From positions 1 through 60,436 of the IMG/VR virus record IMGVR_UViG_3300032287_002746: 60,436 bases of DNA; one strand, written 5' to 3'. The position numbers were made by a program, and so were the translations under genes. Position 1 is the first letter of the stretch, and each line of letters begins with the position of its first letter. This DNA comes from a virus (Duplodnaviria; Caudoviricetes). Under the pieces are notes generated by a model that was not told the DNA's origin, did not search any database, and saw only the letters and a program-made list of their open reading frames with translations. This document shows, in pieces, positions 5,383 through 54,072 of this stretch.

Positions 5383-5390
5383 CAAGTAGT

Positions 5391-5433: not shown

Positions 5434-5456
5434 GTTTAATATTGTAAAAAAAAGAT

Positions 5457-5900
5457 ATGCAAGTTAAAGTTAAAAAATTACACGAATTGGTAGAAATACC
5501 AACTTACGCTAAACCAGGAGATGCAGGAATGGATCTTACTGCTGTAAAAATTGAAAAAGATGCTTATGGTAATGCTGTAATCTATACAGGATTAGCTGTA
5601 GAAATTCCAGAAGGATATGTTGGATTAGTATTTCCAAGAAGCAGCATCTCTAAATACGACATGCATTTAAGAAACAGTGTGGGCGTTATCGATTCTGGAT
5701 ACAGAGGAGAAATTATGCTAAAATTTAGTTTCTTAGAAGATGGTAACTTGTACCAAATGGGTGACAAAGTTGCTCAATTGATAATCTTACCTTATCCACA
5801 AATTACATTCGAAGAAGTTGATGAATTGTCAGAAACTGAACGAGGTGAAGGAGGGTTTGGTTCCACAACGGTAGGTCATGACGGTCCAACGAATTTGTAA
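5457..5900 (+). CDS. dut: trimeric dUTPase
   Basis: AGMDL, PRSS, GVIDSGYRGEI, AQLI, RGEGGFGST motifs. Confidence 0.97.
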   Translation: MQVKVKKLHELVEIPTYAKPGDAGMDLTAVKIEKDAYGNAVIYTGLAVEIPEGYVGLVFPRSSISKYDMHLRNSVGVIDSGYRGEIMLKFSFLEDGNLYQMGDKVAQLIILPYPQITFEEVDELSETERGEGGFGSTTVGHDGPTNL

Positions 5901-31834: not shown

Positions 31835-34800
31835 TTATTGGTTACGTTTCATAATATCAATACGCCAATTTGGATCTGCAATATCTCTAAAGTTTTTAAT
31901 ACCAGTAAGATCGAAAAAGTCTTTCATCAATTTTGCATCGCCTTTCTCATAACCACCAGCTTTTCTCATATAGTGAGAATCTTTCCATATTTCATATTTC
32001 CAAGCACTGTCATCTTCATTAGGTTCTTCACTGCCATTAAAAATATATGATAGTAAAAGATTAAATCCATGACTACTGGTTGCCATTAAGGCGTTAAATT
32101 CACGCGTATATGCAGTAAATGTTGTAAAGTTCTTAACGTATTCTTTAGATCCGCCTCCAATTGGGAACATCGAGTTAGTTTCACCATGAACACCCCAAAG
32201 AACTCTAATTGCGTTGCCTTCTAAGAATGATAGTTCTTCATCGTCATCATCTTTTTTTCTAACATACGCAAGAGCCATCATACTTAAAACTGTAAAGAGT
32301 GCCATTGTCAATGCATCTCGTTTTGCATGTTGAATTTTAGATGCATAAAAACTATTTACTTTTGTTTTGTTATCTCTTAAAAGATTTTTACTACCAAACA
32401 ATACATGTTTAGCAATTTCTTTTGGTCCATAATAACGATATGCTGTATAAAATGCTCTCCAGTATCCTACAGCAACTTCACCAGACTCATAGTTTGGTCT
32501 TAAATATCCAAATCTATTTAACATCTGAGGTATAACATATTTTCTAAAGAAGAATACAAGTTTACCTACTACGTTTTCTTCAAATGCAGTTTGATCTGCT
32601 TTAGCATAGTTACCTTGTGCTCTACGCATTTCAGAATAAATAGTATGTCTTAATCTATTTTCATCTTCTTGTGTATACTCTACATCATTACGTTTTGATA
32701 TGGAACCGTCAGCGTCTTTGTAATATACTTCGTGAGCTGATATTACTTCATCATTACCTTCAGCATCTTTTCTGTACACTTTATCTCCTGTAACAGGATC
32801 AATGTCAAAAGTTTTAAACTTGTAACGATTTAGAATTGCATACATTACTGTAACACCAATTTCTGTATCACCTTTATCTTGTAACAAATATCCAAGTTCT
32901 TGAACATTCATTGCTTTAGATAAAATTCTTCTACCTCTTGAACCGGTTACTTCATCAACATATTTTATGTAGTCTTTTTGCATAGGATTAAATAGTCTAT
33001 ACAACATTGTAGATTTACTAATGTCGCTGACTCTACCCCAGTCACCAAAATAGTTTTTGATAAAACCATTTTCACCAAGACCGTACACCTGACCTTTTGC
33101 CCACATGTAGTCTTCTTTACTATAATGGTCACTTTCCAATCCTCCTGCAGCAATAAATGCCTGAACATTACCAGACACGTAGTTTTTAGTTTGGTTGACA
33201 ACGTCAAATCCAATTCTAATAAAACTGGTATATGACATTACATTATTTACAATCTTGGTAAGTTTTCTATTAAGATATGTAAGAGATTGATCCTGAGCAT
33301 TAATAAACTTTCTTCTTTCAAACTTAAGAATTGAAATTACATTTTCAAGTTCTGCAAGACGTTTGTTCATGTCAATTGGTCTACCTTCATCATCTTTAAG
33401 AACTGCTTTGTTTTGAGTTTGTTTTTTTAAGTCTTCAGAAAGCAATTCAATACCAGAAATAAAAATATCAGCAACCGGTGCAACTTCTTGCATTGCAATA
33501 TTATAGTTTGCCTCTGTTGTCCATTTCATCAAACAACCAATTGCATCTTTTGATTGCATGTTCTCAGGAAGTTGATCGTTAAATCTTAAACGAATTCTAC
33601 CTCCATTATCACCAAAAGTATTTTCTACTGTGTCTTGTACACTACGTGTTTTCCATGCTTTATCAATGTATTGTTCCCATCTGTTTTTTGAACCTTCAAT
33701 GATCCCTTCTCTTGAGAAGTTTTGCATTGTGGTTGAAGCAAATCCAGGAACCTGATATCCAATTTTTTTACCATCAGTTTTTACTTGTAAATCAAAAAAC
33801 ATGGTAGTTAACTTTTTGTAAAAATCAAATAGCTCAGGATCATTCATCATGTTCAAGTATTTTGAATTGATGTTTTCTACTTTGTATGTAGACCTGTCTA
33901 TTTGATATGATTTGTCAGACGCTTGATAAACACCTTTTGGCATTGGAATACCATCTGGTGATTTTAAAAAGTCTGGATTATAAGATGACTCTTTTAATTT
34001 TTTGATTTTATACTTAGGATGTGGCACAGTTTCAGTGTATTCTGCAGCAACACCCGGAGCAGGAAGTCTTTGGTAATTAAAAGATTTTGCTATTGTTCGT
34101 TTGTAAATGTCTTCTTCACTGTCCAATATACTTTGGTATGGTTGTTCGTGAAATTGATTATACCATTTTTCAAATTTCTTTTCTTCAATGTCAAATTGAC
34201 CTTCGTAAAAGATAACATCTTTTGTAGCATTATCAATTGCAGTAGCATCTTTGCTTGCTTGTGCTTTTTCTAAATCAAGTTGTGCTTTGATTAAAAGTTT
34301 CTTTGAACTATTTAATGCTTTAATTTTAGCATCACGAGCATTTATGTAAGATTTACTCAACTGCATAGAAGCAATTCTATTTATTTGCTCTTTAATTTGA
34401 GTCATTCTTTGTTTTTCTTCAGGAGTAAACTTACTCATGTCAACAGTTCTACCTTCGTATATAGACTCAAGTTGTGCTTCTATTTCAGCAATTTGATCTG
34501 CCTCTTCTTCAGTAACAAACTGTGATTGAAGTATACCAGCAACTTTGTGTGGTTTTAGTATTTCAGAACGCTGTTTAAGTAAATCAGACACTGCAGGATC
34601 AGAACCACTTATTTCTGCACGAGCTTCGTATAATGCAGAAAGCTCATCATACCATTGTGATGTAGGTTTCACTACTGTGTTATCAGCGTACCATTTTTTA
34701 AGTAACTCAGGATGTTCTTGATATTTTGCAATTGCATTTGCTTTTCTTCTTTCGTAAAATGCAAAGTTTGTATCAAACTCAAACAGGTTATTAAACTCCT

Positions 34801-37720
34801 CCATGTATGCAGCATAATCAGGATTCATTTTCTTTGCCTTTTCTCTCAGAACTCTGATATCATCTTCAAGCTCTTTAAGTCTATCAAAATCATAATCTTC
34901 AAGCAACACTTCGTTTCCTTCACCTACCTGGAATGTTATTTGTTGTATCTCAAAATATTTTTCCTGAAGTTCATTTCTGATTTCTTCAGGCATCAATGCT
35001 TGTAATTTATAAAAAGATTCGTTAAACGGTAATGATGTATTATCAATCAACCATTTGATTCTTTCAGTATTAAAATTTTCTTTTTCTTTTTTCTTGTCAA
35101 ACAATGCTGTTTTTGCATCCTCATATTCTTGAGTACCATTCTGTTTAGAATTAACCTCGCTTGTCAAGTTTCGAATTTCTTGATTAAATTCTTTTAATTT
35201 TGAGTTATATTCTTTAAATGTACTCTCGTATTCTTGACTGTATGGTTTTACAAAATTTAAACTTCTTTTAGTTTCATATTCACCGGTGTCTTTATTGAAT
35301 ACTTTGTACTCTCTCCACTCAGACATTTCGTCATTTAATTGTTCAACAGAGAATCGTTTTAATAAATTATCTCTGTCTTTGTCAAACTGCATAATTGCAA
35401 AATCATTTTGCATATTGTACACAGCTTTTGCTTGACCATTTTTATACATTTGTGTCATTGCTGAAATAGCAAGATCACTATTAGATGCAGAAGCAATTCC
35501 TTTATCTAATAACAATCCAGAAAACAATGATGTACTATTAAAAGTATCTTGTGCTCCAATATAAACTTGAGAGTTAGGATCTGTAACAGCATTAATATAT
35601 TTCTTTAATGCTTCAATATCATACTCAACTCCTGTAGTAACATATGCACGTAAACGCAATAACTCAAGTTCTTTACGTTGTACATTGTCTAAAATATTTT
35701 TTGCATCAGGACTGCTGTTAGCAATTTTGTTTTTAAAATCAGTAGATACTAATGATATCAAACTTCCTTGTAGTTGTTTAAAAAGACTTGCTGCTTTACC
35801 AGCTTTCATGTCTTCAATTTCTTTTTCTAATTTGGCAATCTTTGGTTCAAGTGCCTGACGTGTTTGCGCATTGATAGAAGAAAAAACTGCTTCACCAGGT
35901 GTCATTAATATTTTAACACCATTTAGTAAAAATGCTTCTCTAAAGTTTGCTTCAATTGTCATGTTGTGTTGACGCAATTGAGTTAACTTTTGCATTACAG
36001 GACTACTTGGAGAAATATTATTATTAGGATCTTCTGCAGCTTTATTTACAATAGACTCAAGAGTTTCAATAATATCGTTTAGTCCTTTTGATCGTATAAA
36101 CGCTTGGTGAATTTGAGTTGTGTCTGAGCTAAAGAAATCAAGTGTTCCAGTTCTAAAAGATTTGATTGCTTCTTTTGACAAATCAGATAACTTTTTAAGA
36201 TCGTCTTCTGTAGCAGCAAGAATATTAAAAAAGTTAATTTCATATGCGGCATCTGTTGCATCTACCTTTTCAGTATAAGTATTGAATGTTGCTAAAGTAG
36301 CTCTTCTAACTGCGAGTAATTCACGCAATGGAGTTGAGTTTCTACCTTGAGAATCTAATTCATTTATTCTATCAAAGATTTCTTCGCTTTGTTGTTTATA
36401 CGCCTCTTTTAAAGCATCCATTACTCTTTTATTTTCTGCTTCAGTAGGAGTAAATTCTAATGTTTGAAAGTTTTTTTCAAGTTCATCTTCAATAGTTTTA
36501 TCACCAATAGGAATTTCTGCATCAATTGCATCACGATACTCTTTTAATCTTTGTGCAGTTCTTAACGGATCTTTTATCCAGTCACCTTGTTCATTAATTG
36601 TTTGTGCGTATGTCGCGTAATCAAAGTAGTTATTACCCTGAAATATGTGTAAAGCATCACCTAAAAATTTATTATTAGCATCTGTTTGATATAACAAAGC
36701 AACAATTTTACTTTCTTCAGTAACAAGACCAATTTGACCAAGCATATTTTCATATGCTTTTAATTGTAGTGTCCAGTTATCATATGCTGTTCTAAGTAAG
36801 TTTGCCTGTTTTAATTTATCAGCCATACCCGGTTTATCTTTAACTTGGTACGAAGTAGTTGCAAGATTTACAAATGCTCTGTCCTTGTCAATTTCTACAC
36901 CAAAGGGACCGGTAGTAACCATGTTGTGAACTTTCTTTGTCTTAAAGTCAAACACTTTTACTTTACCGGTATTACTGATTAAAAGTAAATCCAAACGACC
37001 AACGATATAGTTACCTGCAATATCTTTACCAGCAAGAGTAATCTCTGGTAAGATAAGATATCCTTCATCTTTGTTAATTGCGACATGTTTTGCAACACGT
37101 TGTGCCATGTCAAAAATCTTTTCTTTTGTAAGTTCTTCTATGTAAAATGGATTTTTTTCCAAATATTTCTCATATACTTTATCAAAAAATTCAGGAGTCA
37201 AAACCTGATCAATAATCTTGTTTGTTTTTAATGCCTCAATCTGCGCTTTTTCTAACACATCGTGCATAAATGTACCAAACAGTTTAAATGCTTCATACTT
37301 GGCAGGATCTCCTGCAAAATCTGAAGATCCAATAAATGAAGTAACAGAGTAAGATGGTAATGTATTTCTACCATTTTTTCTTAACTCAATGTTTTTTTCA
37401 AGAAATTCTTGATACTCTCTATTGTTTTGTAAAAGTTTTGAAATTGCTTCTCTTTGAGCATTGTTTGCAAACAAACTAAGATTGGACAATGTAACTGCTT
37501 GTTCCTTAGTTCTTTCCAGTTTGAATTCATCAGAGTGACGAACATGTCGTTCATCATTCTCTTCTACTTTCATACCAGCAATTAAACTTTTTGCCTCATC
37601 GACAGAAGGAATAATGTCTTTATTTAATGCAACTGCAGTTCTTGCCAACGCTTCGTCGCCTCCAAATGCAGCAACAAGGTCTTTAAACAATGGATCATTT
37701 ATGTTAATACAATTTGTCAT
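31835..37720 (-). CDS. 1961-aa virion cargo/ejection protein with N-terminal PD-(D/E)XK nuclease domain
   Basis: GTFMH, PEITL, GRLDLL..VFDFKT, QLKAY; C-terminal TM-like ALTMALFTVLSMMALAYV. Confidence 0.8.
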   Translation of the reverse strand: MTNCININDPLFKDLVAAFGGDEALARTAVALNKDIIPSVDEAKSLIAGMKVEENDERHVRHSDEFKLERTKEQAVTLSNLSLFANNAQREAISKLLQNNREYQEFLEKNIELRKNGRNTLPSYSVTSFIGSSDFAGDPAKYEAFKLFGTFMHDVLEKAQIEALKTNKIIDQVLTPEFFDKVYEKYLEKNPFYIEELTKEKIFDMAQRVAKHVAINKDEGYLILPEITLAGKDIAGNYIVGRLDLLLISNTGKVKVFDFKTKKVHNMVTTGPFGVEIDKDRAFVNLATTSYQVKDKPGMADKLKQANLLRTAYDNWTLQLKAYENMLGQIGLVTEESKIVALLYQTDANNKFLGDALHIFQGNNYFDYATYAQTINEQGDWIKDPLRTAQRLKEYRDAIDAEIPIGDKTIEDELEKNFQTLEFTPTEAENKRVMDALKEAYKQQSEEIFDRINELDSQGRNSTPLRELLAVRRATLATFNTYTEKVDATDAAYEINFFNILAATEDDLKKLSDLSKEAIKSFRTGTLDFFSSDTTQIHQAFIRSKGLNDIIETLESIVNKAAEDPNNNISPSSPVMQKLTQLRQHNMTIEANFREAFLLNGVKILMTPGEAVFSSINAQTRQALEPKIAKLEKEIEDMKAGKAASLFKQLQGSLISLVSTDFKNKIANSSPDAKNILDNVQRKELELLRLRAYVTTGVEYDIEALKKYINAVTDPNSQVYIGAQDTFNSTSLFSGLLLDKGIASASNSDLAISAMTQMYKNGQAKAVYNMQNDFAIMQFDKDRDNLLKRFSVEQLNDEMSEWREYKVFNKDTGEYETKRSLNFVKPYSQEYESTFKEYNSKLKEFNQEIRNLTSEVNSKQNGTQEYEDAKTALFDKKKEKENFNTERIKWLIDNTSLPFNESFYKLQALMPEEIRNELQEKYFEIQQITFQVGEGNEVLLEDYDFDRLKELEDDIRVLREKAKKMNPDYAAYMEEFNNLFEFDTNFAFYERRKANAIAKYQEHPELLKKWYADNTVVKPTSQWYDELSALYEARAEISGSDPAVSDLLKQRSEILKPHKVAGILQSQFVTEEEADQIAEIEAQLESIYEGRTVDMSKFTPEEKQRMTQIKEQINRIASMQLSKSYINARDAKIKALNSSKKLLIKAQLDLEKAQASKDATAIDNATKDVIFYEGQFDIEEKKFEKWYNQFHEQPYQSILDSEEDIYKRTIAKSFNYQRLPAPGVAAEYTETVPHPKYKIKKLKESSYNPDFLKSPDGIPMPKGVYQASDKSYQIDRSTYKVENINSKYLNMMNDPELFDFYKKLTTMFFDLQVKTDGKKIGYQVPGFASTTMQNFSREGIIEGSKNRWEQYIDKAWKTRSVQDTVENTFGDNGGRIRLRFNDQLPENMQSKDAIGCLMKWTTEANYNIAMQEVAPVADIFISGIELLSEDLKKQTQNKAVLKDDEGRPIDMNKRLAELENVISILKFERRKFINAQDQSLTYLNRKLTKIVNNVMSYTSFIRIGFDVVNQTKNYVSGNVQAFIAAGGLESDHYSKEDYMWAKGQVYGLGENGFIKNYFGDWGRVSDISKSTMLYRLFNPMQKDYIKYVDEVTGSRGRRILSKAMNVQELGYLLQDKGDTEIGVTVMYAILNRYKFKTFDIDPVTGDKVYRKDAEGNDEVISAHEVYYKDADGSISKRNDVEYTQEDENRLRHTIYSEMRRAQGNYAKADQTAFEENVVGKLVFFFRKYVIPQMLNRFGYLRPNYESGEVAVGYWRAFYTAYRYYGPKEIAKHVLFGSKNLLRDNKTKVNSFYASKIQHAKRDALTMALFTVLSMMALAYVRKKDDDDEELSFLEGNAIRVLWGVHGETNSMFPIGGGSKEYVKNFTTFTAYTREFNALMATSSHGFNLLLSYIFNGSEEPNEDDSAWKYEIWKDSHYMRKAGGYEKGDAKLMKDFFDLTGIKNFRDIADPNWRIDIMKRNQ

Positions 37721-37723
37721 GTC

Positions 37724-40700
37724 TTATAAACATTTAAGTTTTTCAATAATTTCTTGGTTAGATAATCCTGTAGATTTCAACTGCACTGCCATGTCTGCAA
37801 AAGTTTTAGCATATGCCTCTAAAGATTGACGTTTACCACTTTGTTCGTAGAAGTGTTTTATTACATCAAAGGTAACATTAATATTTTGAATATCAAGATC
37901 TAATTGAGTAAGTGGTGCAGATGTTTCTGGTTTAATAGAATAGTCTTCAAACATCTCTGCTGTTAATCCAAAAGTCATGTCTACTTCTGACATATCAATC
38001 TTTTCTTTTCTATTTATAAGACTCATATATCGTTTAGATTGTTCAATGCTAAATCCAATTGGACTAAGTGTATTGGTTGTAAGTTCCATTGGTAATGCTA
38101 CATATTTTGCAGCGTTACCTGTAGTTCTATATTCACCTACACCGGCAATAGAATTGATAATAGATTTACCAAAACTCTTATTACCTATTTCTTCATCAAC
38201 ACCTTGTAACAAATAAGTAGTGGATCCAAGTTTTAACATAACTGGAAACTTAAACTTGTTTTTGTCATCTTTATCTTTGAAAATGTTTAACTTTTCACCT
38301 ACAGCCATTACTGCTTGAGTAGTTGCTTCTGGAATTGCATTAGCACCTTTCATGTTAATTACAATTTCTTCAAGTTTACCGGTAGTTAATCTGTCAGTAA
38401 GTAAAAACCCTTTTTTGTCTGCACTAACAACTAAACCTAAAATACTTCCAACAATTTTGTTTGCAATTTCAATTCTTTCTTTAGCATCTGTTGTTTGGAA
38501 ATTAATATTTTTCATAAACTTAGACGCGTAATCTGCAGACTCGTTGTAGGAAATATTTTTAACACCTTTGATTTTCTTATTACCAACTTCTTTTGATGCA
38601 CCATGTGCCATCAAAACAAACAAGTCATCAAACAATTTATACACTTCTTCTTGAGTAGTTGTTGTCTCATCACCAATAAATGATTTAATTGCATCAATTA
38701 GTTCCTTTTTATTACCTTGAGTACTCTCAATTGCTTTGATAAAGTCTTCTATATTTTTAGATAACGGTATTTGTAATTCAGCAGGCAAGTATTGTAAAAA
38801 AGATCCAGATTTATATTGCAATCCGGTTCTTGCAAGTTCATGATAAAACAGTTTTTTCATAAACAAGTTTTCTTTTTTGTACAATACATATGCGTCATTC
38901 GAAATACTATCAGCCAGTTCACCAGCAATTTTTGCTTTACTTACCATCTGTAAAGTTTTTTCTTGAACTGGTTGTCCGTCTGTTGTAAATACTGTTGCAG
39001 TATTATTAGATGTTTTTAAATATTGTAAAAACTTGTTGTCAGGATATTGATCCTTCATCATGTCAAGTTCTTTATCTAAAGTATTTGTAAACCAATAGTC
39101 TGCAGTAAATGTTTCAATTAAGTTTTTATCATCTGCATCAAAGTTTGCTTGCATTGATGCATTGGTGCTTTTTCTACTTCCAGGAAGACTTAGTTGATAT
39201 TTACGCAATGCAACAAAACTTGTCATAATCTTGGCAATGTTAGACGGATCTGTAAATACAGTGTCAAACAAGTTTTTAATTGGTTGGAAGAACAATGTTC
39301 TTTCTAAAAATATCTTAGAAGATTGTTGTTTTAAATCATCCATTGCTTCACTAAGTGGAACCCATACTTGTTTTCCATCAAACAATTTATCGCTGGACTC
39401 TACTGTAAAGATAGATTCACCATCGCGTAACTGATTAATATTTTTATACAACTTGTCAAAAGATACAAAAGTTGGATTAAGTTTTTTATACAAATCAACT
39501 ATTGCACCTGCATTTCGTATCTTCCATGCTTGTTGTGATTGTTCTTTGTATAACTGTAATAAAATTAACTTTTGTGCTTCATTTGATAATGCTGTTTTAA
39601 CACCTCCAACATAAGCTGATACTTCATATCCAATGTCTTCAGTAGTAAGAGAGTTATTCTCTAATCTGTATTCATCAAGTGGAGTCTGTTTAAAGTCAAT
39701 CATCAAGTTGTCTTTGTTAATTTTAACATTGACAGCATATGAGTCTGATGCAATTAATCCTGCATCGATTAATTCATTTAACAGTTTTCTGTCACCATTG
39801 GTTTTAACAAAATTTTCAATTTCTTTACCAATCATGTCATTTAAAAACAAAAACTCTGATGAGGTTGACTCACTAATTGCAAAACGAGATGCTTGAACTT
39901 TGTATATAGCGTTTCTTATTTCAGGAATAAAATTAAATCCAAATGCAAACGCAGGATCTAATCCAATTCCAATCATTGCAAGAGTAACGCCAGTGTTTAT
40001 TTCATTCATTTCTAATGCTGCAGGAATAGGTTTCTTCATACCATCCGCAGCAATACCTAATACAATACCATTAAGTTCAATTACACGTTGACCATTTTTG
40101 TTTATCGCACCAAATCTGTCAAGATTGTTTTGAGTAACTTCTGTAGTACCATCTGATTGTAAATCATTACTTAAAAATTTCCAAATGACATTATCAGAAT
40201 TTAGTTCTAATTCATATTGACTTGCAAGTGCTAAGAATTTTTGTAACGATGCTGCAATACCAATCATGTCTTTATAAGCAGAACCTAAATATTTAGACTC
40301 GATAATAGATGTAATTGTATTTGGATCAGACTTAGGTCCAAAGTTTTCAAGATCTCTACCAAATCCTTTTACTATACCTTCAAAGTATTCTGTAGAAGAT
40401 TTTGCATGTATGTACAAGTTTTTGAAGACTGCTTCATTAGAAAGAATATCAATTTTTGCTTCTAAGTTATTGTTTTGATGTATTGGTAATACAGACAAAT
40501 GATTTACAATGTTGCTGTCAAAGTTTGCTTGATCAACCGGTAAACCATATTTCTCAAAAACTTGTAATGCTGATTCAATACGTACAGATGCATTTACAAA
40601 AGTTTTTAATCTACGTTTTTCATCACGTGTCTTTTTAAGATCTTGATATGTTTCATCAAGTTCAGTTTTTAAATCAAAATGTTCTTTACCTAATTTTCTA

Positions 40701-46700: not shown

Positions 46701-49234
46701 TGCATGAAATTTTCTGTAAATCCTGGATACTTTTTACCAACTTCTAATAATTTATCGATTACTCTTTCGATGATTACCTCAGAAAATTTTTGTTGTTGCT
46801 TTTTAATTTCATTTACAAGAGCAACTATGTTTTCAGATGGATTTGCTTCTTTAGATAACTGATTTACCAATGAATAAAACTTTGAAAGATCCTTTTGTTT
46901 GGTAAGGTCTAATTCTGAAAATATAATGTTTTCATTAATTACTTTTGTTACTAACGGACCTCCTCTTAAAGATGCTGCTAAAGTTCTTACATCATTTTCA
47001 GGTGATAAAATAGTTGTACCATCAGCTGCAAATATTGGTCTAAAAGAAAAATTAAAATCTGATTTAAGTTCTTTATCACCCATAAAAGCATACTTACCAG
47101 TACTACTTACAGGTCTAACTTCAACTTGTAAATGTCCATTTGCATCGCTTGCAAAGTTTACATACAATTCTAACTTATCGTTTTTAGATGCAAACTTTTT
47201 AAAAGCATAAACATCTTTATTAAATTGTTGTAACTGAGCTTTTTTATCTGGAGCATTTAATACATTAGCAAGAGTTGTCATAAATGTGGCAAACCCTTCT
47301 TCTTGAGATAATACAAATACAGGTCTTACAACTCTAAATCCATATGTACCGTTGTTGTTAAAACGAATAATTATGTTTGTAGTTGTTTCAACATATTGAT
47401 TGTTTTTAAGTATTACATTTTTGATATAGTCATCAGTCAGTTTTACTTTTGGATCAAAGTAACTTGTTAAGTAATCATCTTGTGTAACTTGGTCAATGAC
47501 ACCTCCGTTTTCATCTTTTATGATAATACGCTCATTTAAACCTAAAGTATTAACTAATGTAAACTTATTTAACTTATCTTTTTCAGGAAACAATCCTGTT
47601 TCTTTATCTTTTTTATCTTTAATTTTACTAAAAGCAAATACAACATTACGTTCTTCTTCTTTGATTATTTGACCAGTATTATCAATTGTTCCAATGGTTA
47701 ACTTACGAGAAAGATTAGGTTCAGACTCAATTACTTCAGATAAGTTTTGTTTTGTTTCTTTACCAAAAGTTTGTGTACCAATGTTATACTGTGAAAAGAA
47801 TTGCTTAGTAACATCAATAGATGTAACATCTTCTGAGAACTGATCCTCAATATTATTTGTCAATTCTTCTTTAAATGTTTTGTATACTTCGTAAGCATTT
47901 TTAAGTGTTAGTAAATCATCTGCAGTTAAATCTTCTATTGATTTATCTCCTAATCTTTTGATAGACAACTCTTTAACTTTTTCAAGATGTACAGGATTTG
48001 AAAAATCTATTTTTTGTGTAGTATTATCACTGTTTAAGAAAACATAATTGTCAAGTGGATACAGGTAAAACTTTTCACCGGTTCCAATTATCTCACCCAT
48101 CAATGCAAATTTACTATCTGCTTTTTGAGGTCTTGCGACAGTAATAACCGTTCCTTTAGAAGTAGACTTTAAATAATTGATTTGAGTTTCATTCTCAAAT
48201 GTTTCATATGTTCTATTACCAAGACCTTTGTATTGTGGATTTGTAGCAAGTCCCTGTATTCTTTTTAGACGTTCATCACCAACAGTGCTTAGTTGTACTG
48301 CAAATATCCGTACACCAGCTTCTGGGTTATCCATCTTTTTAAGTTTATCTTCAATTTGTTCTCTAAGATATACAGTGTTTTCTACAGCTTGGATCTTAAA
48401 ATTAGATGTAAGGGTGTCTTCAAAAAACTCTTGTTTGCCAGTATTACTATTTGAGTAATCATCGTTACGAGCATTTTTTGTACTAAGAATATCTATTTCA
48501 TCAAGTTGAAACTCATTACCATCTTGTGTCATTATAAATAAACCTTCTGGTTTAGCTATTGCCTCAAGCATTTGACCATTTTTTAAAGTAACAAGTACAT
48601 TGTTTAATTCTGCAAGAGATGCAATATCACGCAATGATATGAAGTCAGACTTTTTATCTAACGACTCTATAACAGAATCAATTCTTGCTAATAAAAATTC
48701 TTTCTGAGAATCAGTAGTATTTAGTTCACGAATAACATCTTTTAATTCTGAAGTCATGCTTTTTAATACTTCAGTTCTTTCTTCAAGACTTTCAAATTCG
48801 TGTGTGTTAAAGTAATTTTTTATTGCATTTAATACACCGTTTGATCCTGTTAAATCAATACCGGTAATTGTAGTCATTTTAGAAAGAGCTTCTATCTTTT
48901 TTTCAATAACTTCTGCTTTTAATGAAGGTGTTTTTTTAACAGTGTAAAGATTGCTTACTGCAGATAAAAATTTATCAGGTTCTGAAAGTAATGGTTTTGC
49001 TTCTGCAACCTTTACTGCATTACCAGTTTGATAAAATGAACCATCAAGATCATTTAAACCAATGTATATCTCAGATATTGAAAATAAAGAAAGTGATTTT
49101 TCATTGTTTGAAAGACCACTCTTTAAAATAAACTCTGCTGTTTTATCAAAGTTTCTATATTCGTTTGGATTTAGTTTAATTAGATTCTTTACAATTGATA
49201 CATATTGACCAGTTGTTATTTCACACTGTTTCAT
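37724..49234 (-). CDS. 3836-aa crAss-type virion RNA polymerase with zincin (HExxH) domain
   Basis: RIPTE and catalytic GSDFDVD (about 41122-41145); YHEAFH (about 46127-46144). Confidence 0.88.
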   Translation of the reverse strand: MKQCEITTGQYVSIVKNLIKLNPNEYRNFDKTAEFILKSGLSNNEKSLSLFSISEIYIGLNDLDGSFYQTGNAVKVAEAKPLLSEPDKFLSAVSNLYTVKKTPSLKAEVIEKKIEALSKMTTITGIDLTGSNGVLNAIKNYFNTHEFESLEERTEVLKSMTSELKDVIRELNTTDSQKEFLLARIDSVIESLDKKSDFISLRDIASLAELNNVLVTLKNGQMLEAIAKPEGLFIMTQDGNEFQLDEIDILSTKNARNDDYSNSNTGKQEFFEDTLTSNFKIQAVENTVYLREQIEDKLKKMDNPEAGVRIFAVQLSTVGDERLKRIQGLATNPQYKGLGNRTYETFENETQINYLKSTSKGTVITVARPQKADSKFALMGEIIGTGEKFYLYPLDNYVFLNSDNTTQKIDFSNPVHLEKVKELSIKRLGDKSIEDLTADDLLTLKNAYEVYKTFKEELTNNIEDQFSEDVTSIDVTKQFFSQYNIGTQTFGKETKQNLSEVIESEPNLSRKLTIGTIDNTGQIIKEEERNVVFAFSKIKDKKDKETGLFPEKDKLNKFTLVNTLGLNERIIIKDENGGVIDQVTQDDYLTSYFDPKVKLTDDYIKNVILKNNQYVETTTNIIIRFNNNGTYGFRVVRPVFVLSQEEGFATFMTTLANVLNAPDKKAQLQQFNKDVYAFKKFASKNDKLELYVNFASDANGHLQVEVRPVSSTGKYAFMGDKELKSDFNFSFRPIFAADGTTILSPENDVRTLAASLRGGPLVTKVINENIIFSELDLTKQKDLSKFYSLVNQLSKEANPSENIVALVNEIKKQQQKFSEVIIERVIDKLLEVGKKYPGFTENFMQDFPDPKHLVVDVNEEGAYIPRIEFANNNKTQARRDYDKSVSSFDIKTIPVKKVVVTSKSPSGTAASVANVEPLEVTNHPIENIPVSQPLPSTEYTEGTVTENIDANDDIPEIDVFSISNTEVQTETEAERQNSVQWLQENLPQFGISQEDIASIVDLAAIDGTVLGMFKDRVIYLNNSILSKGVVYHEAFHGVFRYLMSPEQRSNLIDAIASNKKYKKAFTPAALKKFASERNYVYNYEKMFQLQAEEILADGFQNYMNKNTKPQGLVAKLFEMLKRLIDMFTQRGRLVDSTYKDIQRGYYSSKQIQSNLYDGQVAYEVIDGLKAIVKDKTSATGVSQKAMPLSAFDQNQLVNMVTKYVIENTSDKTFDAKFETAQKLILDKVYNLDRLIEKNPDKAKEITQTYGDLISQYRFMLGARTTGETIYDLNNSGDPAYDKRILPNKIPQYESDPLNNDLGQVSLETLKKLVKKKSQELYSILDGTGETIDKALLLKELAGENEKKSQVDEDYENDQEVSDDVSIDEGFGEHNRLDSAPRQIRRFLALIYYNKEDQDLGISFPRVIDGENIYGTLLKITSDVSVDNIINQIKVTADVYEEDGKTDAAAELKALFEQLKEYTGMDENGSSPSKNRELYNMFVDVLHGTETEYIMLHARLKTGVFEEEGNNIENYSLGDTIVKIDSKNKRSKLIASMITTHAKKRNDEEYLASVNRLIELSNRIINKKIILGSVAKANNDLEDLTFELYNAFKGVGIDFPKSLIRMSILAIDKIDNNNNGLSQIDNKTLLHYDANASLIADKAFLQKDLFYDIRAIYNTVKDDKITSNAFGKMLDENNDNFKRFFSIAYKFQKYILKYDATDRPSVFRNAAGKPVYRYTKYTPLISTAQSLRRAGLENTLRKDPYYNDFLKDFYKDNPLFADLLAGKDTADAKKAQLLMDNMRVSLFGGVAQFNNQTYKDGKTFGKLDKQSFHVMSILSFLQRTTVSSTETKLDEDGNPEDITTSFQTFLRTFDTLEASQTNFLITSIYKPYADKTGLLKEGKHLKIVADLEGKVKQEFNRIKKEWNSRVDNKTNFDSGKSNRLINKYNGVLNKDDKTKADTDAENLRAYNFNYLPYFFAAPENDTLTETLIGLAKDKNIAFEDIDESTLADLREGLNNYALQELNTYINTLKDLGVVKENEETVKALKKDPATGKTITDTSGNPIVFETKQPPLRYLTSSLIADKLKIDSRPDQSTSTVYAGTKPNYDVRAELQSRSDLNGLLADYFFNQWYNSLMVNELFLGDKAMNVKDGIDSTKRNKKLLASGSTMKAGKHTVTYLNTIEGYINDKYPEYGPFYTPEEVLNDIQITDDVVRKYIYDNFNLNQKVFDGQSISTLFHQTDMYDALGRLTPEILRSIIAKQYRELTEEEVRNMEKNKVVNNPKKTVTASRNVYHKQSETYIDRNDVSRLIVPEGKTREQVYDDLHSKYMYIYSLRNQIQESHRINDTGEFDSTINDLERDIQNTYVKIHAYYEPLPNRIKLHKILNSMEYHNIDQLMDTEASKNATKLPVDFFAHQAEEYLPLDLASLRVNNEDKYLQVETSGVHDTARFSVQGKILLPADLKYIEKLAEKRHAEDGTVMSSSERKAMNELGNVLLKYQESLYDIADSNLQSLKHFMRKGEDFDLGKVFDLIRENLEQQNAPASVLKLFDVDASGKPVHSPNLPGIRSMLEYYFFSLYSKHVTDERGSGFKNIHVSSFGLDVLENEDGEVVTTEDYKNNPENYPNVKSRPLGVRIEAEYDSKGELISKKYFVECILPKQFFRSQQQEDFFMENLREMFALRIPTEDKRSMIVLKVVDYVDSSNLNSIIVPQFIHLLAGSDFDVDSLYGQTYAHYVNAVGDYAKYGNYDIYKSPAQGKFIEYIHYMANDENFRKLISAKRKALLESGELSISANTLEVMYGMGYTQEEYIKALTAGIYDELESYEEDLQDDIEQIKSEKKVVKEAFVQSIQDTENDPDDYVARANRRKLGKEHFDLKTELDETYQDLKKTRDEKRRLKTFVNASVRIESALQVFEKYGLPVDQANFDSNIVNHLSVLPIHQNNNLEAKIDILSNEAVFKNLYIHAKSSTEYFEGIVKGFGRDLENFGPKSDPNTITSIIESKYLGSAYKDMIGIAASLQKFLALASQYELELNSDNVIWKFLSNDLQSDGTTEVTQNNLDRFGAINKNGQRVIELNGIVLGIAADGMKKPIPAALEMNEINTGVTLAMIGIGLDPAFAFGFNFIPEIRNAIYKVQASRFAISESTSSEFLFLNDMIGKEIENFVKTNGDRKLLNELIDAGLIASDSYAVNVKINKDNLMIDFKQTPLDEYRLENNSLTTEDIGYEVSAYVGGVKTALSNEAQKLILLQLYKEQSQQAWKIRNAGAIVDLYKKLNPTFVSFDKLYKNINQLRDGESIFTVESSDKLFDGKQVWVPLSEAMDDLKQQSSKIFLERTLFFQPIKNLFDTVFTDPSNIAKIMTSFVALRKYQLSLPGSRKSTNASMQANFDADDKNLIETFTADYWFTNTLDKELDMMKDQYPDNKFLQYLKTSNNTATVFTTDGQPVQEKTLQMVSKAKIAGELADSISNDAYVLYKKENLFMKKLFYHELARTGLQYKSGSFLQYLPAELQIPLSKNIEDFIKAIESTQGNKKELIDAIKSFIGDETTTTQEEVYKLFDDLFVLMAHGASKEVGNKKIKGVKNISYNESADYASKFMKNINFQTTDAKERIEIANKIVGSILGLVVSADKKGFLLTDRLTTGKLEEIVINMKGANAIPEATTQAVMAVGEKLNIFKDKDDKNKFKFPVMLKLGSTTYLLQGVDEEIGNKSFGKSIINSIAGVGEYRTTGNAAKYVALPMELTTNTLSPIGFSIEQSKRYMSLINRKEKIDMSEVDMTFGLTAEMFEDYSIKPETSAPLTQLDLDIQNINVTFDVIKHFYEQSGKRQSLEAYAKTFADMAVQLKSTGLSNQEIIEKLKCL

Positions 49235-49254
49235 AAAAGGTGATTTTTTTAAAA

Positions 49255-52200
49255 TTACTTAAAGCACTCAGCTGCTTTCTTTAATTGTTCAATTATTGAC
49301 GATTCAGAAATAGGATCCTCACTTACAAATTTACTAATTTCTTTTGAATTTTCTTGTACAATTGATTTAAAATCTGCAAGTTCATTGTTCAAGCTTTCTA
49401 AAATATTACGACCAGTAGACAACACGTTAGGTGTTTCAACTGTATCAAATAAGTTTATCTGAATTTCTTCAGATGGTTTAGTAACAGTAACTTTTTTTGA
49501 AGCATACTTAATCCTTTTACCTGTGATAACAGATTCTCTAATACCTTCAAGACTTTTTCTACCTTCTTTTGTAGCAGCGTACTCTTCTAATGTTTTAAAC
49601 TCAGTGCCATTTTTCTTATTGTACAACTTCATTGCTTTCTCACCACGCGATTGCATGCTGGCATACTTTACAGTATCCATTTTGTCTTCAATGTCTGTCA
49701 ATACTTCATCCATAAAGTTCTTTACAAAATCAATATCTTTTCTTGTGTTGTTTGCAGAAGTTGCAATCTCTTCAGCTTTTTCTTCAGTGCTTACAGTTTG
49801 AAGTACATTGTTACTTGTATCTGTGATGTCATATGTTTGAGCATCGTTTGTTGTAACTGTAAAAGGTTCTGCTGTAGATTCTGCTGGAGTTTCTCCAATC
49901 AATGCACTTAAGAAATTAACTTCTGCTGCACTTACAAAACCTTCTTCGTTACTTTCAGTTAACTGTGTAACATTAGGAGTAGGAGCAGGTGTAGGAGTTA
50001 CAGTCGCAACAGGTGCTACAGGCAATTCTATTGGCTGAGATATTTCATCAGGTATTCCTTGTGTAGTAGTAACAACTGCTTCAGGTATTTCTGGTTCAGG
50101 AGCATTTGATGCTGGAGTTTCTTTTAATTTTTTATTTAATGCAGCAAGTACATAACTTCTTTCTTGTAATAAATCATCTATTTCTTGTTGTGTACCTTGA
50201 ATACTTAATTCATCATACGTTTCGTTAATGCTATTAAGATTATTTTGCAACTCATCCACAGACATGTCCATGTATTGTTGACCCGGAGTTGTTTCAGGTA
50301 TTTCACTAACAGGAGTCTCAGAAGTATTAGTCATTGCTTCAGATGCTGCAACAGCCTCTGCTTCAGTGTCATAACCTTCAGTAATAATTTCATCATTAGT
50401 TGTTGCTACACCCCATTTACCATCAGGATCCTTAAATGTTTTTGTACCTGTTTTTTCTTGAGTTATTCTTTGTTTTGCTATTGCAACTTGAGCATCAATA
50501 GATTCTTTAAACTGTTCAGAGTTTATAAGTTTTTGTTCATTTTCTCCAAGTTCAACATCACCGCGAGCAATTTTATCTACAAGTAATTGTTCCTTAACAG
50601 GTTCCATTTTACCAGTAGCAATCATTTGATCATATTCTTCATCTGTAATATCTTGAGAATATTCACTTGGTGCATATTTTTTAACTATATCTGCAAATTT
50701 TGCAGACACATTATTTTTAAGAGAGTCAAGTAATTTGTCTACATATTCGCCATTTTGTATACCAAGGTTTGGATCAAGAGCAACAGTCAATAAGTTTTTA
50801 TAATTTTCATCTTGATACATCATTTCCATGATCTCAAATCCAATTGAAAGTTTATCTGATTCGTTAAATGAACTATTTACTTCTTCTAAACTATCAAGCA
50901 ATCCACCAGTACCATAAATATGTTGTATGATTGTTACATTGTATCTATCTAAAAATGATATCACATTAAACTTCATTTTGCCATCAGTCATTTTACTAAT
51001 AGCATGTTTAAAGTTTTTAGGATTCATAAGAGTATCAACAGCGTTCATATAGTCTTTTGTATCCTTGTCAAGTTTCATGTAGTCTACTAACTTGCTATGA
51101 ACATCACGCATTTCTGTTTCAGAAATTTGTGTGTCTACTCCAGCTTGTTGATTTTTAACATTTAATAATTGTCTAAATGTTTCAATAACCTCATCATCGT
51201 TTACATCAAATGTTGTTTCAACAGTGTCTAAAGGTTCACCGTAACCGTCAAGTAATGTTTGTTTTTTATCAATACGTTTACCAACAAATGTATCTAATAC
51301 TATATTTTCTGTCGGAACTATTTCACCTTGTTCATTTAATGAAATACTTGCGTCAACTCTATTACTAAAAAATGATTGCCATTTTTCTAAGTTAGCAAGT
51401 TCTTCTTCTTTATCTTTAATTTGTTTTTCAATCTTAGGTTTTAGACTTTCATCTGTGTTTTGTTCAAGATTGTTTCTATAGATTCTTAATTCAGACATTA
51501 TGTTACCCTTCTCATCATTAAGAATCTTAGGATCTGTCAGAACACGGATAACATAATCAGAACTGTTAGCAATACTTTGATTACTTAATAATTCTTGTGC
51601 AATTTGTTGTGCACGTTTTGCAGTCATGTCTCCTTTAACTGCATTCATAGCAATTGTGTGAACAGCATCTTCTTCAGCAGAACGAGCAATCATTGCAGTG
51701 AAATATTCTTTGCTACCTTGAGTATATAATGTTGGCTCCGTAAAAGTCTTAACCTTGTTTCTTATACTATCAGTTACATCAGAATATTTTTTAATGTCTT
51801 TTGCAAGACTTTTTGAAAATTCTAACGGAGTTGTATACTTAGTATCTTCAAGTTTTACACCAAATGATTTTTCAAAATCTTCATTTGACATGTCAACTCC
51901 CATTTCTTTAACCACTCTTTGCAACACATCAATCGATTCTGTGCGTTTTGCGGCACTAATTGCGGAAACTAATGCATTATCTCTACTGTTCTCGAATTCG
52001 TATCTTAAACCTTTCGCAGCAGCTTCAGCTTGGTTCTGTCCTTCTTGTGTTTGATTGACAAAATTTACAATCTTATGTTTAAATGTTCTTTCTTCTGTTT
52101 GTTTAAAGAAAGTATTTAAAGTTTCAATGTCTTTGTCAAATTGTTTTTTAACTCTTTCAACAGGATTTTCACCAGGATTTTTTGCATACTGTCTTTCATT

Positions 52201-54072
52201 AATTTTATTAGACGCAGCTTCTAATCCTTTGGTTGTCATGTGAACAGGAAGTCTTACTAAGGTTCCTGTCAATGCACCCATTAAAAATGTTTTAATACCT
52301 TGCTTGCTTAGTTCATCTTCAAACGCTTGACCAAACGATTCACTTAATATTGAATTAGATTTCTGGTATTGACCAACATAGTAATCTTTCCAACCATTTG
52401 ATGAAATACTTTGCAAGTTTTCTTGTAAACCTTCAACAAGTTCAAATCGTGCCATGTCTTTAAAGAACGCTTTACCTACTTGAAAAGTTGCTTCTTTTTT
52501 ACCAAAGTCTGTTGCAATTTGTCCTGTAAGACCATATGCTCCAGCAAATCCTTTTTTATAAAATTTCTTTAAACCATTTTTTTCTACAAGTAACAAGTTA
52601 TCTTTGGTTGCTTCGATTAACTCACGCATTGTTTTGTTAGCAGGTAAAAATTTATTAAACATGTTTCCAAATTGTAACTTGTTAGTTGCCAATAAGATTG
52701 CCATGTTTGTTTTATAATTTGCACCACTTGAATCCATTGATAACTTACGCATTTCTTCAAACTGCGTTTCATTTGGATTCTCACCATTATTGTTATTGCG
52801 ATGATCGTCAATAAGTTTATTTAATGTATCACCATAAGAAGACACTGCTTCAAAAGATGCTTCTGTTGCAGACATGTTTAATTCCTGTGCTACACGTCTT
52901 AATCCTTGTGCACCCATACCAACAAGTTTACCTGTTGATAATCCTGCATCTACACCAGCTTTAATTCTTTCACCATATCTTATACCTGTACCAACTAATG
53001 GTAATCCTCTTGCGACATTACCTGTCATTTCAAGTACAGATTTTGATTTTAATATTGCTGGTAAGTTGCCATTGAAAACTGTAAATGTATCATTTATAGC
53101 ATCTCGTGCAATACTACCGGTTGTGTTAGATACAGCAGCTGCTTCATCTATTTTAGTCAATAATCTAATTTCTTCTGCAGACTTGTTACCTAATGTAAAA
53201 CCTTGTGCTGCTTCTCTAAAGAAATTTGTTTTCTTTGCAAGTGCTTCTGCAGATTCTCTGGCTCCTACTTCAACAGCTTCCCTGCCAAGTAATCTTCCAA
53301 AACCTGCTCCAATTTTTGCAAAGGTTGGAGCAAAAGTAGCAGCACCTTCACCACCTGCAGGAGCAGTGGCTGCTGTTATTAAAATATCTGCAGCAATCTC
53401 TAATGACAATGCTGCAAATGTTCCTAACATAAATCCACTACTTCCAATAAACTCAGATACACTTCCTTTTGAAAAAATACTATCTTGATCTTCAGGTTTT
53501 TGAAACACAAAGTTTTTTTGCGCATCCTTTTGATCCTGATAATACTGTTGCATCATTTCATCTTCAGTAGGCATTAATAAAGACATATCCATGTTTGCAA
53601 TAGCAGAACCCATTCTACCATAACCAACAAAGTTTTCTTTAAATGCTGCACCAAATTTACTTGACATAGAATCAAAACCTTTTGCAAGAGCTGACCCCCA
53701 TGTTTCCATTGCAGCAAATCTTGCATAGTTAGTAGGATCCTTTGGATTAAATCCATCTGGGTTATATGATTCTTGTTGTGTAAAATTTGCTATACTATCA
53801 GCATCCAAGTATCTTATGCCAGGTGACTTTTGGTAAGTCATTGAATCAATAAGAGATGTAGGAGGATCTATTTTATTTTGCAACTGTTGTCTACCAACAT
53901 ACTGAGAATAACGCATAGCATCTCCAAGTGGATCACCAGCTGGACCATCAGAAGAAGTTTCAACATTATTTGTTGCCTGATTGTTTGATGACATTAATGA
54001 CGCAAAATCCTGTTGTTGATTTGCATCAGTAGCAGTTAATGCTGATGCGTCTAATTCTGTGTTTTCAGCCAT
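49255..54072 (-). CDS. 1605-aa virion cargo/ejection protein
   Basis: Helical, Gly/Ala-rich hydrophobic segment near aa 213-260, P/T/E-rich linker; adjacent to the RNAP gene. Confidence 0.75.
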   Translation of the reverse strand: MAENTELDASALTATDANQQQDFASLMSSNNQATNNVETSSDGPAGDPLGDAMRYSQYVGRQQLQNKIDPPTSLIDSMTYQKSPGIRYLDADSIANFTQQESYNPDGFNPKDPTNYARFAAMETWGSALAKGFDSMSSKFGAAFKENFVGYGRMGSAIANMDMSLLMPTEDEMMQQYYQDQKDAQKNFVFQKPEDQDSIFSKGSVSEFIGSSGFMLGTFAALSLEIAADILITAATAPAGGEGAATFAPTFAKIGAGFGRLLGREAVEVGARESAEALAKKTNFFREAAQGFTLGNKSAEEIRLLTKIDEAAAVSNTTGSIARDAINDTFTVFNGNLPAILKSKSVLEMTGNVARGLPLVGTGIRYGERIKAGVDAGLSTGKLVGMGAQGLRRVAQELNMSATEASFEAVSSYGDTLNKLIDDHRNNNNGENPNETQFEEMRKLSMDSSGANYKTNMAILLATNKLQFGNMFNKFLPANKTMRELIEATKDNLLLVEKNGLKKFYKKGFAGAYGLTGQIATDFGKKEATFQVGKAFFKDMARFELVEGLQENLQSISSNGWKDYYVGQYQKSNSILSESFGQAFEDELSKQGIKTFLMGALTGTLVRLPVHMTTKGLEAASNKINERQYAKNPGENPVERVKKQFDKDIETLNTFFKQTEERTFKHKIVNFVNQTQEGQNQAEAAAKGLRYEFENSRDNALVSAISAAKRTESIDVLQRVVKEMGVDMSNEDFEKSFGVKLEDTKYTTPLEFSKSLAKDIKKYSDVTDSIRNKVKTFTEPTLYTQGSKEYFTAMIARSAEEDAVHTIAMNAVKGDMTAKRAQQIAQELLSNQSIANSSDYVIRVLTDPKILNDEKGNIMSELRIYRNNLEQNTDESLKPKIEKQIKDKEEELANLEKWQSFFSNRVDASISLNEQGEIVPTENIVLDTFVGKRIDKKQTLLDGYGEPLDTVETTFDVNDDEVIETFRQLLNVKNQQAGVDTQISETEMRDVHSKLVDYMKLDKDTKDYMNAVDTLMNPKNFKHAISKMTDGKMKFNVISFLDRYNVTIIQHIYGTGGLLDSLEEVNSSFNESDKLSIGFEIMEMMYQDENYKNLLTVALDPNLGIQNGEYVDKLLDSLKNNVSAKFADIVKKYAPSEYSQDITDEEYDQMIATGKMEPVKEQLLVDKIARGDVELGENEQKLINSEQFKESIDAQVAIAKQRITQEKTGTKTFKDPDGKWGVATTNDEIITEGYDTEAEAVAASEAMTNTSETPVSEIPETTPGQQYMDMSVDELQNNLNSINETYDELSIQGTQQEIDDLLQERSYVLAALNKKLKETPASNAPEPEIPEAVVTTTQGIPDEISQPIELPVAPVATVTPTPAPTPNVTQLTESNEEGFVSAAEVNFLSALIGETPAESTAEPFTVTTNDAQTYDITDTSNNVLQTVSTEEKAEEIATSANNTRKDIDFVKNFMDEVLTDIEDKMDTVKYASMQSRGEKAMKLYNKKNGTEFKTLEEYAATKEGRKSLEGIRESVITGKRIKYASKKVTVTKPSEEIQINLFDTVETPNVLSTGRNILESLNNELADFKSIVQENSKEISKFVSEDPISESSIIEQLKKAAECFK

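Follow-up and report, generated by a model that had tools for sequence, protein, structure and literature searches.

The virus record IMGVR_UViG_3300032287_002746, analysed here at its full length of 60,436 nucleotides (the window), carries a block of giant genes on its minus strand. The products of three of them, D (1605 amino acids), C (3836 amino acids, virion RNA-polymerase-like) and B (1961 amino acids), have almost no cysteine apart from those at termini facing the adjacent protein in gene order. This terminal-cysteine pattern is real and strongly conserved across Steigviridae, Intestiviridae, Suoliviridae, Fpv1-like phages and the clade of the window. Comparison of sequences suggests that D, C and B are probably joined head to tail by disulfides into one chain, with the C-terminal cysteine of each protein paired with the N-terminal cysteine of the next. 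A fuller model is possible but tentative, in which the proteins would be threaded N to C through the tail as one chain, each pulling the next, and would be cut apart only in the reducing cytoplasm.

In the window, D, C and B together hold six cysteines in 7402 residues, four of which sit 2-4 residues from facing ends. D ends in ...IIEQLKKAAECFK, and its sole cysteine is residue 1603 of 1605 (tail ...ECFK); C begins MKQC and ends ...IIEKLKCL; B begins MTNC. The outer ends, namely the N-terminus of D and the C-terminus of B, are cysteine-free, and the neighbouring protein E (872 amino acids) has no cysteine at all. An earlier note on this DNA had read these six positions and the coordinates of the four terminal codons from the letters, and had counted four of about six cysteines at facing termini with none at the outer ones; translation and the junction DNA bear out each of these readings exactly.

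If six cysteines were placed uniformly over the 7402 residues, at least four would fall in the four 6-residue facing windows with P = 1.6e-9. Base composition alone predicts about 36 cysteine codons in D, 86 in C and 45 in B, and cysteine makes up 0.08% of D, C and B against 1.57% (120/7663 residues) of the 33 plus-strand gene products of the window. None of 31 control open reading frames (ORFs) in the window has a cysteine in residues 2-6, and three have one in the last six. Both remaining cysteines are internal. Cys2634 of C (codon 41330-41332) is retained in closer relatives (positions 2618-2638, P0001-P0020), divergent relatives of C having the terminal pair only, and Cys1396 of B (codon 33533-33535) is likewise retained in close relatives only. 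Only one codon (GAC) separates the TAA stop of C from the ATG of B, which is in the same frame (positions 37718-37726), and one stop read-through would fuse the two proteins.

Relatives of the three proteins keep the pattern. A word-based search returned 34 homologues of C, 37-100% identical across the last 700 residues; all 34 end in cysteine or in cysteine plus one residue, and the three that have no N-terminal cysteine start inside the protein. The terminal two are the only cysteines in about 3,900 residues in 13 full-length homologues, and C4 and C3835 are invariant in 31 aligned ones (alignment A1). Homologues of D have a single cysteine, third from the end (22/22). A profile of the first 150 residues of B, run against 1.84 billion cluster representatives, gave 145 matches, 135 with a cysteine in the first 8 residues; among matches of at least 1200 amino acids the count is 66 of 67, and the exception is an unrelated repeat protein. 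Two long proteins of this kind, P0131 (3454 amino acids) and P0194 (2372 amino acids), combine a B-type N-terminus (M-x-C-P-N-K-N...) with a cysteine at the C-terminal end, as the last residue in P0131 (...EENNC) and at -4 in P0194; the order of the modules may differ in some lineages, in which one more link would come after them.

A profile scan of viral contigs yielded 38 related loci with flanks, at 30-91% identity, in which a facing end was scored as positive when a cysteine lay at most 6 residues from it. Both facing ends are positive at 30/30 D/C junctions and at 34/34 junctions into B. Cysteine is missing from the first 10 residues of every complete D protein (0/26) and from the last 10 of every complete B protein (0/34); 25 of the 26 D proteins have a single cysteine, and all 26 complete E-like proteins are cysteine-free. 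The D, C and B proteins of these loci hold 191 cysteines in 257,576 residues (0.074%), of which 148 are at most 6 residues from an end. The depletion is specific to the cargo block, because downstream fibre-like ORFs of the same loci are cysteine-rich (for example, 17 in 443 amino acids). The pattern persists to about 30% identity, with differing flanking residues and codons.

Cultured and named phages were compared in a set of 12 crass-like and related genomes with 15 junctions. Within Crassvirales the set covers Steigviridae, Intestiviridae and Suoliviridae. A cysteine lies near both facing ends at 15/15 junctions, 1-11 residues from the C-terminal end and at N-terminal position 3-5. The cleanest case is phi14:2, in which gp078 has one cysteine (the last residue, 1797), gp077 only Cys 3 and Cys 2179, and gp076 only Cys 3; DAC15 is like it. 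In ΦcrAss001, gp47 has one cysteine at -3 (residue 2339), gp50 has Cys 5, Cys 1334 and one at -9 (residue 2404), gp49 has one at residue 5 and gp46 has none. The masses given for gp47, gp50 and gp49 are 262.5, 276.9 and 154.5 kDa, together about 690 kDa (PMC10172136). The signature is also present in crAssphage, crAss002, five Suoliviridae genomes and Flavobacterium phage Fpv1. The co-occurrence of a C-terminal cysteine with an N-terminal cysteine in the product of the next gene, as the earlier note had anticipated, therefore holds at every junction tabulated (30/30 D/C, 34/34 into B and 15/15 in named genomes).

The pattern might be suspected of arising by chance, from wrongly annotated starts or from nucleotide signals where genes meet, given that C and B are one codon apart in the same frame and that two public annotations required start correction. 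Such an origin is close to negligible in probability: the P value of 1.6e-9 comes from the window alone, and relatives as distant as about 30% identity keep the pattern with other residues and codons around it. ΦcrAss001 decides against a nucleotide-level cause. Its gp47 lies on the strand opposite gp50 and gp49, yet the facing pattern is kept, so the nucleotide context of a gene junction cannot be responsible.

Several observations in the named genomes stand beside this comparison. The annotated starts of the fused RNA polymerase (RNAP) in crAssphage ZA (QAU03811, L050:16668-16760) and crAss002 (gp33, L051:17088-17200) precede an internal Met-Ser-Cys by 21 and 32 codons. In cr271_1 and other relatives the protein begins with the matching sequence, so both public start codons are probably too far upstream. 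Upstream of the block, Intestiviridae carry a lone cysteine near a C-terminal end with no obvious facing partner (L050:5774-8161, 4916-5713; L051:6393-8066), at -2 in ZA QAU03814, at -6 in QAU03815 (...RCGG...) and at -8 in crAss002 gp30 (...RCGG...). Under translation table 11, genes gp22-gp26 of cr272_1 (L056) hold 4-37 in-frame stops, so the genome is recoded; its cargo proteins with 39 and 21 cysteines keep the facing terminal ones. Several B-like or fused proteins (L052, L053, L055, L056, L057) share an internal cysteine 117-137 residues from the C-terminal end (136 in Fpv1, 137 in cr50_1, 124 in cr1_1, 135 in cr272_1, 117 in cr271_1), which a terminal-link model does not explain.

The terminal cysteines track the points at which the giant genes break. 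In nine of the related loci C ends early, with a cysteine in its last two residues (...NNC in seven, ...DNC in L044 and ...NCK in L039), and is followed by a separate protein of 149-195 amino acids, or 744 in L044, with exactly two cysteines, at residue 3-5 and at the penultimate position. Both new ends of the fission junction thus carry a cysteine in 9/9 loci; the unsplit C of the window has none there. The last 56-69 residues of most of these separate proteins align to the last 56-68 of C of the window (E 1e-11 to 1e-7), and BLAST found no match between the small ORFs of L021, L023 and L041 and the end of C. A tree of C proteins was built with 35 rows, from which L018, whose C is truncated, and loci aligning over fewer than 450 columns to C residues 2100-2750 were left out. 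The forms with separate proteins of about 190 and 744 amino acids form a single clade with good support, and the position of L039, on a long branch, is not resolved; the nine loci thus represent one or two fissions of C.

Fusions lose what fission gains. D and C are fused in Fpv1 (4401 amino acids), with a single, penultimate cysteine, and in the Suoliviridae genomes cr50_1, cr10_1, cr1_1, cr272_1 and cr118_1 (4460-6386 amino acids), with a cysteine at -2, -11, -4, -3 and -4, respectively; the next protein has a cysteine at residue 3-5 in each. C and B are fused in the Intestiviridae crAssphage ZA, crAss002 and cr271_1. There the D-like protein has a penultimate cysteine, and the fused protein starts Met-Ser-Cys (in ZA and crAss002 after the start shift) and has no C-terminal cysteine. 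In the fused forms the cysteines stand only at the junction that remains, and the pair is absent from the junction that was fused.

The break point can also move. The HExxH and DFDxD motifs are 1668 residues apart in C of the window, 1667 across the gp47/gp50 boundary of ΦcrAss001 (184 + 1483) and 1489 in the fused cr50_1 protein, and the near-equal spacing indicates that the cargo block is colinear. The break between D and C falls about 1030 residues before HExxH in the clade of the window vs 184-214 after it in ΦcrAss001 and crAssphage ZA, and both positions are flanked by cysteine pairs. With partners that always occur together, a pair that is lost on fusion and gained on fission, and a disulfide at such a pair in phage A4 (below), comparison strongly favours the proposal of the earlier note that the facing cysteines would pair head to tail in gene order.

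Gene fusion and fission bear directly on the idea that each terminal cysteine bonds elsewhere, to a second copy, the portal, the capsid interior or other cargo, and that the facing arrangement is incidental. Such bonding is unlikely, since it leaves unexplained both the joint loss on fusion and the joint gain on fission, as well as outer ends that are always cysteine-free (0/26 N-ends of D, 0/34 C-ends of B), even though inter-subunit disulfides are reported for other virion proteins of ΦcrAss001 (PMC10172136) and lone C-terminal cysteines without a facing partner occur in Intestiviridae (ZA QAU03814 at -2, crAss002 gp30 at -8). Cyclisation of C from N- to C-terminus was rejected as a general role, the fused forms keeping only one terminal cysteine. 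Other pairings, such as a cyclised C plus a bond between D and B, would need re-pairing at each fusion and would leave the A4 structure unexplained.

A solved example of the signature comes from cyanopodophage A4, in which cryo-electron microscopy resolved, in the virion, a disulfide between gp27 Cys1715 and gp26 Cys5; gp27 inserts its C-terminal helix into gp26 (PMC12002296). In the A-4L genome gp27 (1717 amino acids) lies directly upstream of gp26 (1114 amino acids), and neither protein holds another cysteine. The pre-ejectosome of A4 therefore has the arrangement seen here by sequence alone: a lone cysteine third from the C-terminal end of the upstream protein and a lone cysteine at residue 5 of the product of the next gene. 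A4 differs in having one link, not two or three, and in forming a pentameric ring around the portal axis with no RNAP; the paper on it presents the bond as stabilising the structure locally and does not describe it as a conserved signature that follows gene fission and fusion (PMC12002296). BLASTP finds no similarity between A4 gp26 or gp27 and any window protein (E > 0.4), and the A4 pair is an analogue of the window cargo, not a homologue.

The same pairing evidence would fit a facing pair held by a bridging metal ion (Zn, Cu(I) or Fe) in place of a disulfide. A metal bridge needs no oxidant and so fits phages of the anaerobic gut, and acidic residues often lie near the C-terminal cysteine (...DENNC, ...QECK, ...KECLE). 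Two thiolates alone are, however, a poor site for the usual structural metals; near the ends in alignments A2, A4 and A5 no column but the cysteine is invariant, and no other conserved His, Cys or Asp stands beside it; and the one solved example of the signature, in phage A4, is a disulfide (PMC12002296). A metal bridge is accordingly considered improbable.

The redox environment met during ejection raises a different possibility, in which the thiols would be free in the virion and oxidised by host Dsb proteins in the periplasm, so that the ejected proteins would be locked as a trans-envelope conduit. Ejected proteins do cross the periplasm, and contact with periplasmic disulfide catalysts is the published rationale for cysteine suppression in N4-like ejection proteins (PMC11445570), in keeping with the zero cysteines of N4 virion RNA polymerase (vRNAP), gp51 and gp52 and of T7 gp15 and gp16. 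In A4, however, the bond is already present in the virion (PMC12002296), and since the RNAP must reach the cytoplasm, holding it in the periplasm would fit poorly with its role in early transcription of phi14:2 (bioRxiv 10.1101/2020.03.07.982082); only a small probability is given to such a lock.

The positions of the cysteines also speak against other chemistries. In a split intein, an N-fragment of tens of residues with cysteine first ends the first protein, and a C-fragment precedes the cysteine of the second; split inteins and trans-splicing were rejected, as only 0-10 residues follow the C-terminal cysteine and 1-7 precede the N-terminal one. A lipobox cysteine is preceded by a signal peptide of roughly 15-25 residues, and a lipoprotein was rejected with the N-terminal cysteine at residue 2-8. 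Chemistry of the native-chemical-ligation type was rejected on spacing (cysteine offset 0-10 at the C-terminal end, 2-8 at the N-terminal end), and the residue after Met is often not removable.

Docking of the ends, the step proposed to precede the disulfide, was examined by one complex prediction, in which alignments were supplied for both partners, residues 1-150 of B and the C-terminal 71 residues of C. The pair scored 0.37 vs 0.02 for the best of three controls; at least 39% of contacts are common to the runs, and the predicted local distance difference test value (pLDDT) of the partner is at least 72. The mark used was reached by 58/80 solved complexes and 2/110 mismatched pairs, but only 7 of the 80 solved complexes, and both passing mismatches, reach it with scores of 0.60 or less; the result therefore lends weak support, and no contacts were reported with it. 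In the AlphaFold2 model of the N-terminal domain of B, Cys4 lies in a short coil before a helix at 10-18, and Foldseek gave 0 matches to this model in the PDB at E <= 0.001. The earlier note had proposed paired docking modules common to both junctions, with a shared IIE[QK]LK before the cysteine. The motif is real, but the similarity is limited to 10 columns, with an hhalign probability of 2.6% between the C-terminal ends of D and C; the N-terminal ends of C and B give 5.9%. Related modules at the two junctions were rejected on these values.

Several points weigh against a disulfide chain. Support for the bond in crass-like virions is all comparative, the complex prediction is a weak pass whose score comes without contacts, so that Cys-Cys proximity is not visible, and no docking module common to both junctions is detectable (hhalign 2.6% and 5.9%). 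Gut phages live without oxygen, so the oxidant that would form the bond is not obvious, and exposure to air could account for the disulfides in purified ΦcrAss001. Near-duplicates are common among the 38 loci (the 35 rows of the C tree include 30 different ones), and independent lineages are therefore fewer than the junction counts suggest. The cysteine-poor background is not universal: C of L027 and of L045 has 6 cysteines, and cr272_1 gp23 holds 39. The C-terminal cysteine can lie some way in from the end (-9 in ΦcrAss001 gp50, -11 in cr10_1 gp32), and in crAssphage ZA and crAss002 the N-terminal cysteine falls at residue 3 only when the annotated start is shifted to the internal Met-Ser-Cys.

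On the disulfide-chain reading, selection would have stripped the cargo of nearly all cysteine, sparing a single one close to every end with a neighbour in the chain. An upstream protein would dock by its C-terminal tail on the N-terminal region of the downstream one, and the two thiols would form an inter-protein disulfide once the particle leaves the reducing cytoplasm. Separately translated proteins would thereby become a quasi-linear pseudo-polyprotein, D-S-S-C-S-S-B, of about 7400 residues, and the lack of other cysteines would prevent loops and mis-links. The link would hold the set in fixed order and stoichiometry through storage and ejection until the host cytoplasm reduces it.

The extension to threading as one chain with reductive release is conjectural, and would be eased by the geometry of the joints. 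Because the cysteines are at the extreme ends, the stubs at a joint would be only 0-10 residues long, which would suit a chain passing partly unfolded through a tail channel reported as narrower than 50 Å, through which cargo passes partly unfolded (PMC10172136). Cut apart in the reducing cytoplasm, the chain would free the virion RNAP for early transcription. Gene fission and fusion would be nearly neutral in such a model, because a cysteine pair could stand in for a peptide bond.

Features are located in Table 1. The window, assigned from its cargo block and replication module, is by these sequence features from a crass-like phage. The replication module fills its plus-strand half and includes helicases, a primase zinc finger, a DnaB-like helicase, a PD-(D/E)XK nuclease and ribonucleotide reductase; capsid, portal and terminase genes lie outside the window, and the nearest named relatives of the cargo genes include Fpv1, itself not classified in Crassvirales. 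D, C and B appear to be the cargo block, counterparts of ΦcrAss001 gp47, gp50 and gp49, and their packaging in the virion and injection into the host are carried over by analogy from ΦcrAss001 and phi14:2. Mass spectrometry identifies gp45, gp46, gp47, gp49 and gp50 as virion cargo of ΦcrAss001 (PMC10172136), and the GenBank record of phi14:2 marks gp076-gp082 as structural by tandem mass spectrometry.

The labels of the earlier note for the three proteins held in part. C, called an RNAP, matches ΦcrAss001 gp50 around the DFDxD motif (BLASTP E 4e-10), which also occurs in gp50 (residue 1483) and in its homologue phi14:2 gp077 (residue 1361), the chain of PDB 6VR4 named 'DNA-dependent RNA polymerase'; in fuller form the invariant motif of the 31 aligned homologues is GSDFDVD, residues 2698-2704. 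Residues 900-1150 of C match the zincin part of gp47 (E 2e-9). B, called nuclease-bearing, has a PD-(D/E)XK Pfam match at residues 145-265 and matches gp49 (E 4e-8); a D[FY]DxD at its residue 942, present in 2/36 B-like proteins, was set aside as chance. D, called a membrane-segment protein, has a single weak hydrophobic segment (residues 214-232) and only a weak match to gp47 (E 0.004). No match came from a PHROG scan, which took in A, B, D, E and F but not C, from PDB sequence searches with D, C, B and profile A1, or from tblastn of the last 999 amino acids of C against a phage collection.

Table 1. Features of the giant-gene block, in coordinates of the window
Feature	Position	Strand	Description or evidence
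Gene F	56717-60271	minus	1184 aa (amino acids) ORF
Gene E	54076-56694	minus	872 aa, directly upstream of D, Cys-free, outside the proposed chain
Gene D	49255-54072	minus	1605 aa, proposed first link; one Cys (residue 1603)
Codon of D Cys1603, proposed donor end of the D/C junction	49264-49266	minus	Translation; sole invariant column of D-tail alignment A4, 26 sequences
Gene C	37724-49234	minus	3836 aa, virion RNA-polymerase-like, proposed middle link; Cys 4, 2634, 3835
Codon of C Cys4 (MKQC), proposed acceptor end of the D/C junction	49223-49225	minus	Cys at residue 3 or 4 in 31/34 homologues
HExxH zincin motif of C (residues 1032-1036)	46127-46141	minus	H1032, E1033, H1036 invariant, alignment A1
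DFDVD catalytic-type motif of C (residues 2700-2704)	41123-41137	minus	D2700, D2702, D2704 invariant, alignment A1
C-terminal 67-residue module of C (residues 3770-3836, ...KCL)	37727-37927	minus	Small ORFs of L013, L024, L026, L028, L039 and the 744-aa protein of L044 align; alignment A2
Codon of C Cys3835, proposed donor end of the C/B junction	37730-37732	minus	Cys or Cys plus one residue ends 34/34 homologues
Gene B	31835-37720	minus	1961 aa, proposed last link; Cys 4, 1396; PD-(D/E)XK match
Codon of B Cys4 (MTNC), proposed acceptor end of the C/B junction	37709-37711	minus	Invariant in alignment A3
B N-terminal 150 residues	37271-37720	minus	All-helical in AlphaFold2 model on alignment A3, mean pLDDT 74.3
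Gene A	29140-31800	minus	886 aa ORF

Known systems share parts of this arrangement. The blocks gp47/gp50/gp49 of ΦcrAss001 and gp078/gp077/gp076 of phi14:2 are homologous, have the identical terminal-cysteine pattern and are found in virions; C of the window is larger than its counterparts there (3836 vs 2180-2412 amino acids) and the D/C break is placed differently. Giant injected proteins of Schitoviridae (N4 gp50-52, DEV gp71-73) and T7 gp15/gp16, which include a virion RNAP, are likewise nearly devoid of cysteine. Cysteine suppression is documented for the Schitoviridae ejection proteins, with a suggested link to passage through the periplasm (PMC11445570), and N4 vRNAP (0 in 3500 residues), gp51 and gp52, like T7 gp15 and gp16, have none at all, whereas crass-like cargo retains exactly the facing terminal ones. 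T7 gp14 (L061:1729-2319) has a single cysteine at residue 2, and no facing partner was seen. As in viral polyproteins and in split or fused giant genes, the block is one colinear unit whose break points shift between lineages, but a polyprotein is one chain that is then cut, whereas the cargo pieces are translated apart and would be re-joined after translation by side-chain bonds.

ΦcrAss001 virions do contain disulfides, which are reported for the gp57 dimer and for proteins of the tail hub and ring (PMC10172136). In the text of that structure paper, supplements aside, the word 'cysteine' is absent and none of the seven mentions of 'disulfide' concerns cargo proteins; the text of the phi14:2 RNAP preprint (bioRxiv 10.1101/2020.03.07.982082) contains no mention of cysteine, disulfide or Cys, and that of the 2023 Crassvirales review none of cysteine or disulfide. 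Literature searches, which did not extend to supplements, returned no description of a facing-cysteine chain for crass-like phages. The earlier note's statement that it knew of no such description stands for these phages; the principle itself has one precedent in print, the single link of A4 gp27-gp26. What appears to be new, as far as sequence comparison can tell, is a multi-link chain that would include the virion RNAP, and a cysteine pair that tracks gene break points.

The problem at stake is the ordered passage of several proteins of 150-430 kDa, an RNA polymerase among them, through the narrow tail of a crassvirus. The structure paper on ΦcrAss001 describes the order of ejection as likely set by packing and mutual interactions, its text giving no more specific mechanism (PMC10172136). 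The combination of otherwise cysteine-free proteins with facing terminal cysteines offers a sequence rule for spotting injected protein chains in uncultured phages, and it also serves to correct start codons, as in crAssphage ZA and crAss002. If the linkage is true, a covalent head-to-tail tether would provide co-packaging in fixed stoichiometry, ordered ejection and redox-triggered release, and would explain why the break points of the giant genes shift freely between crass-like families.

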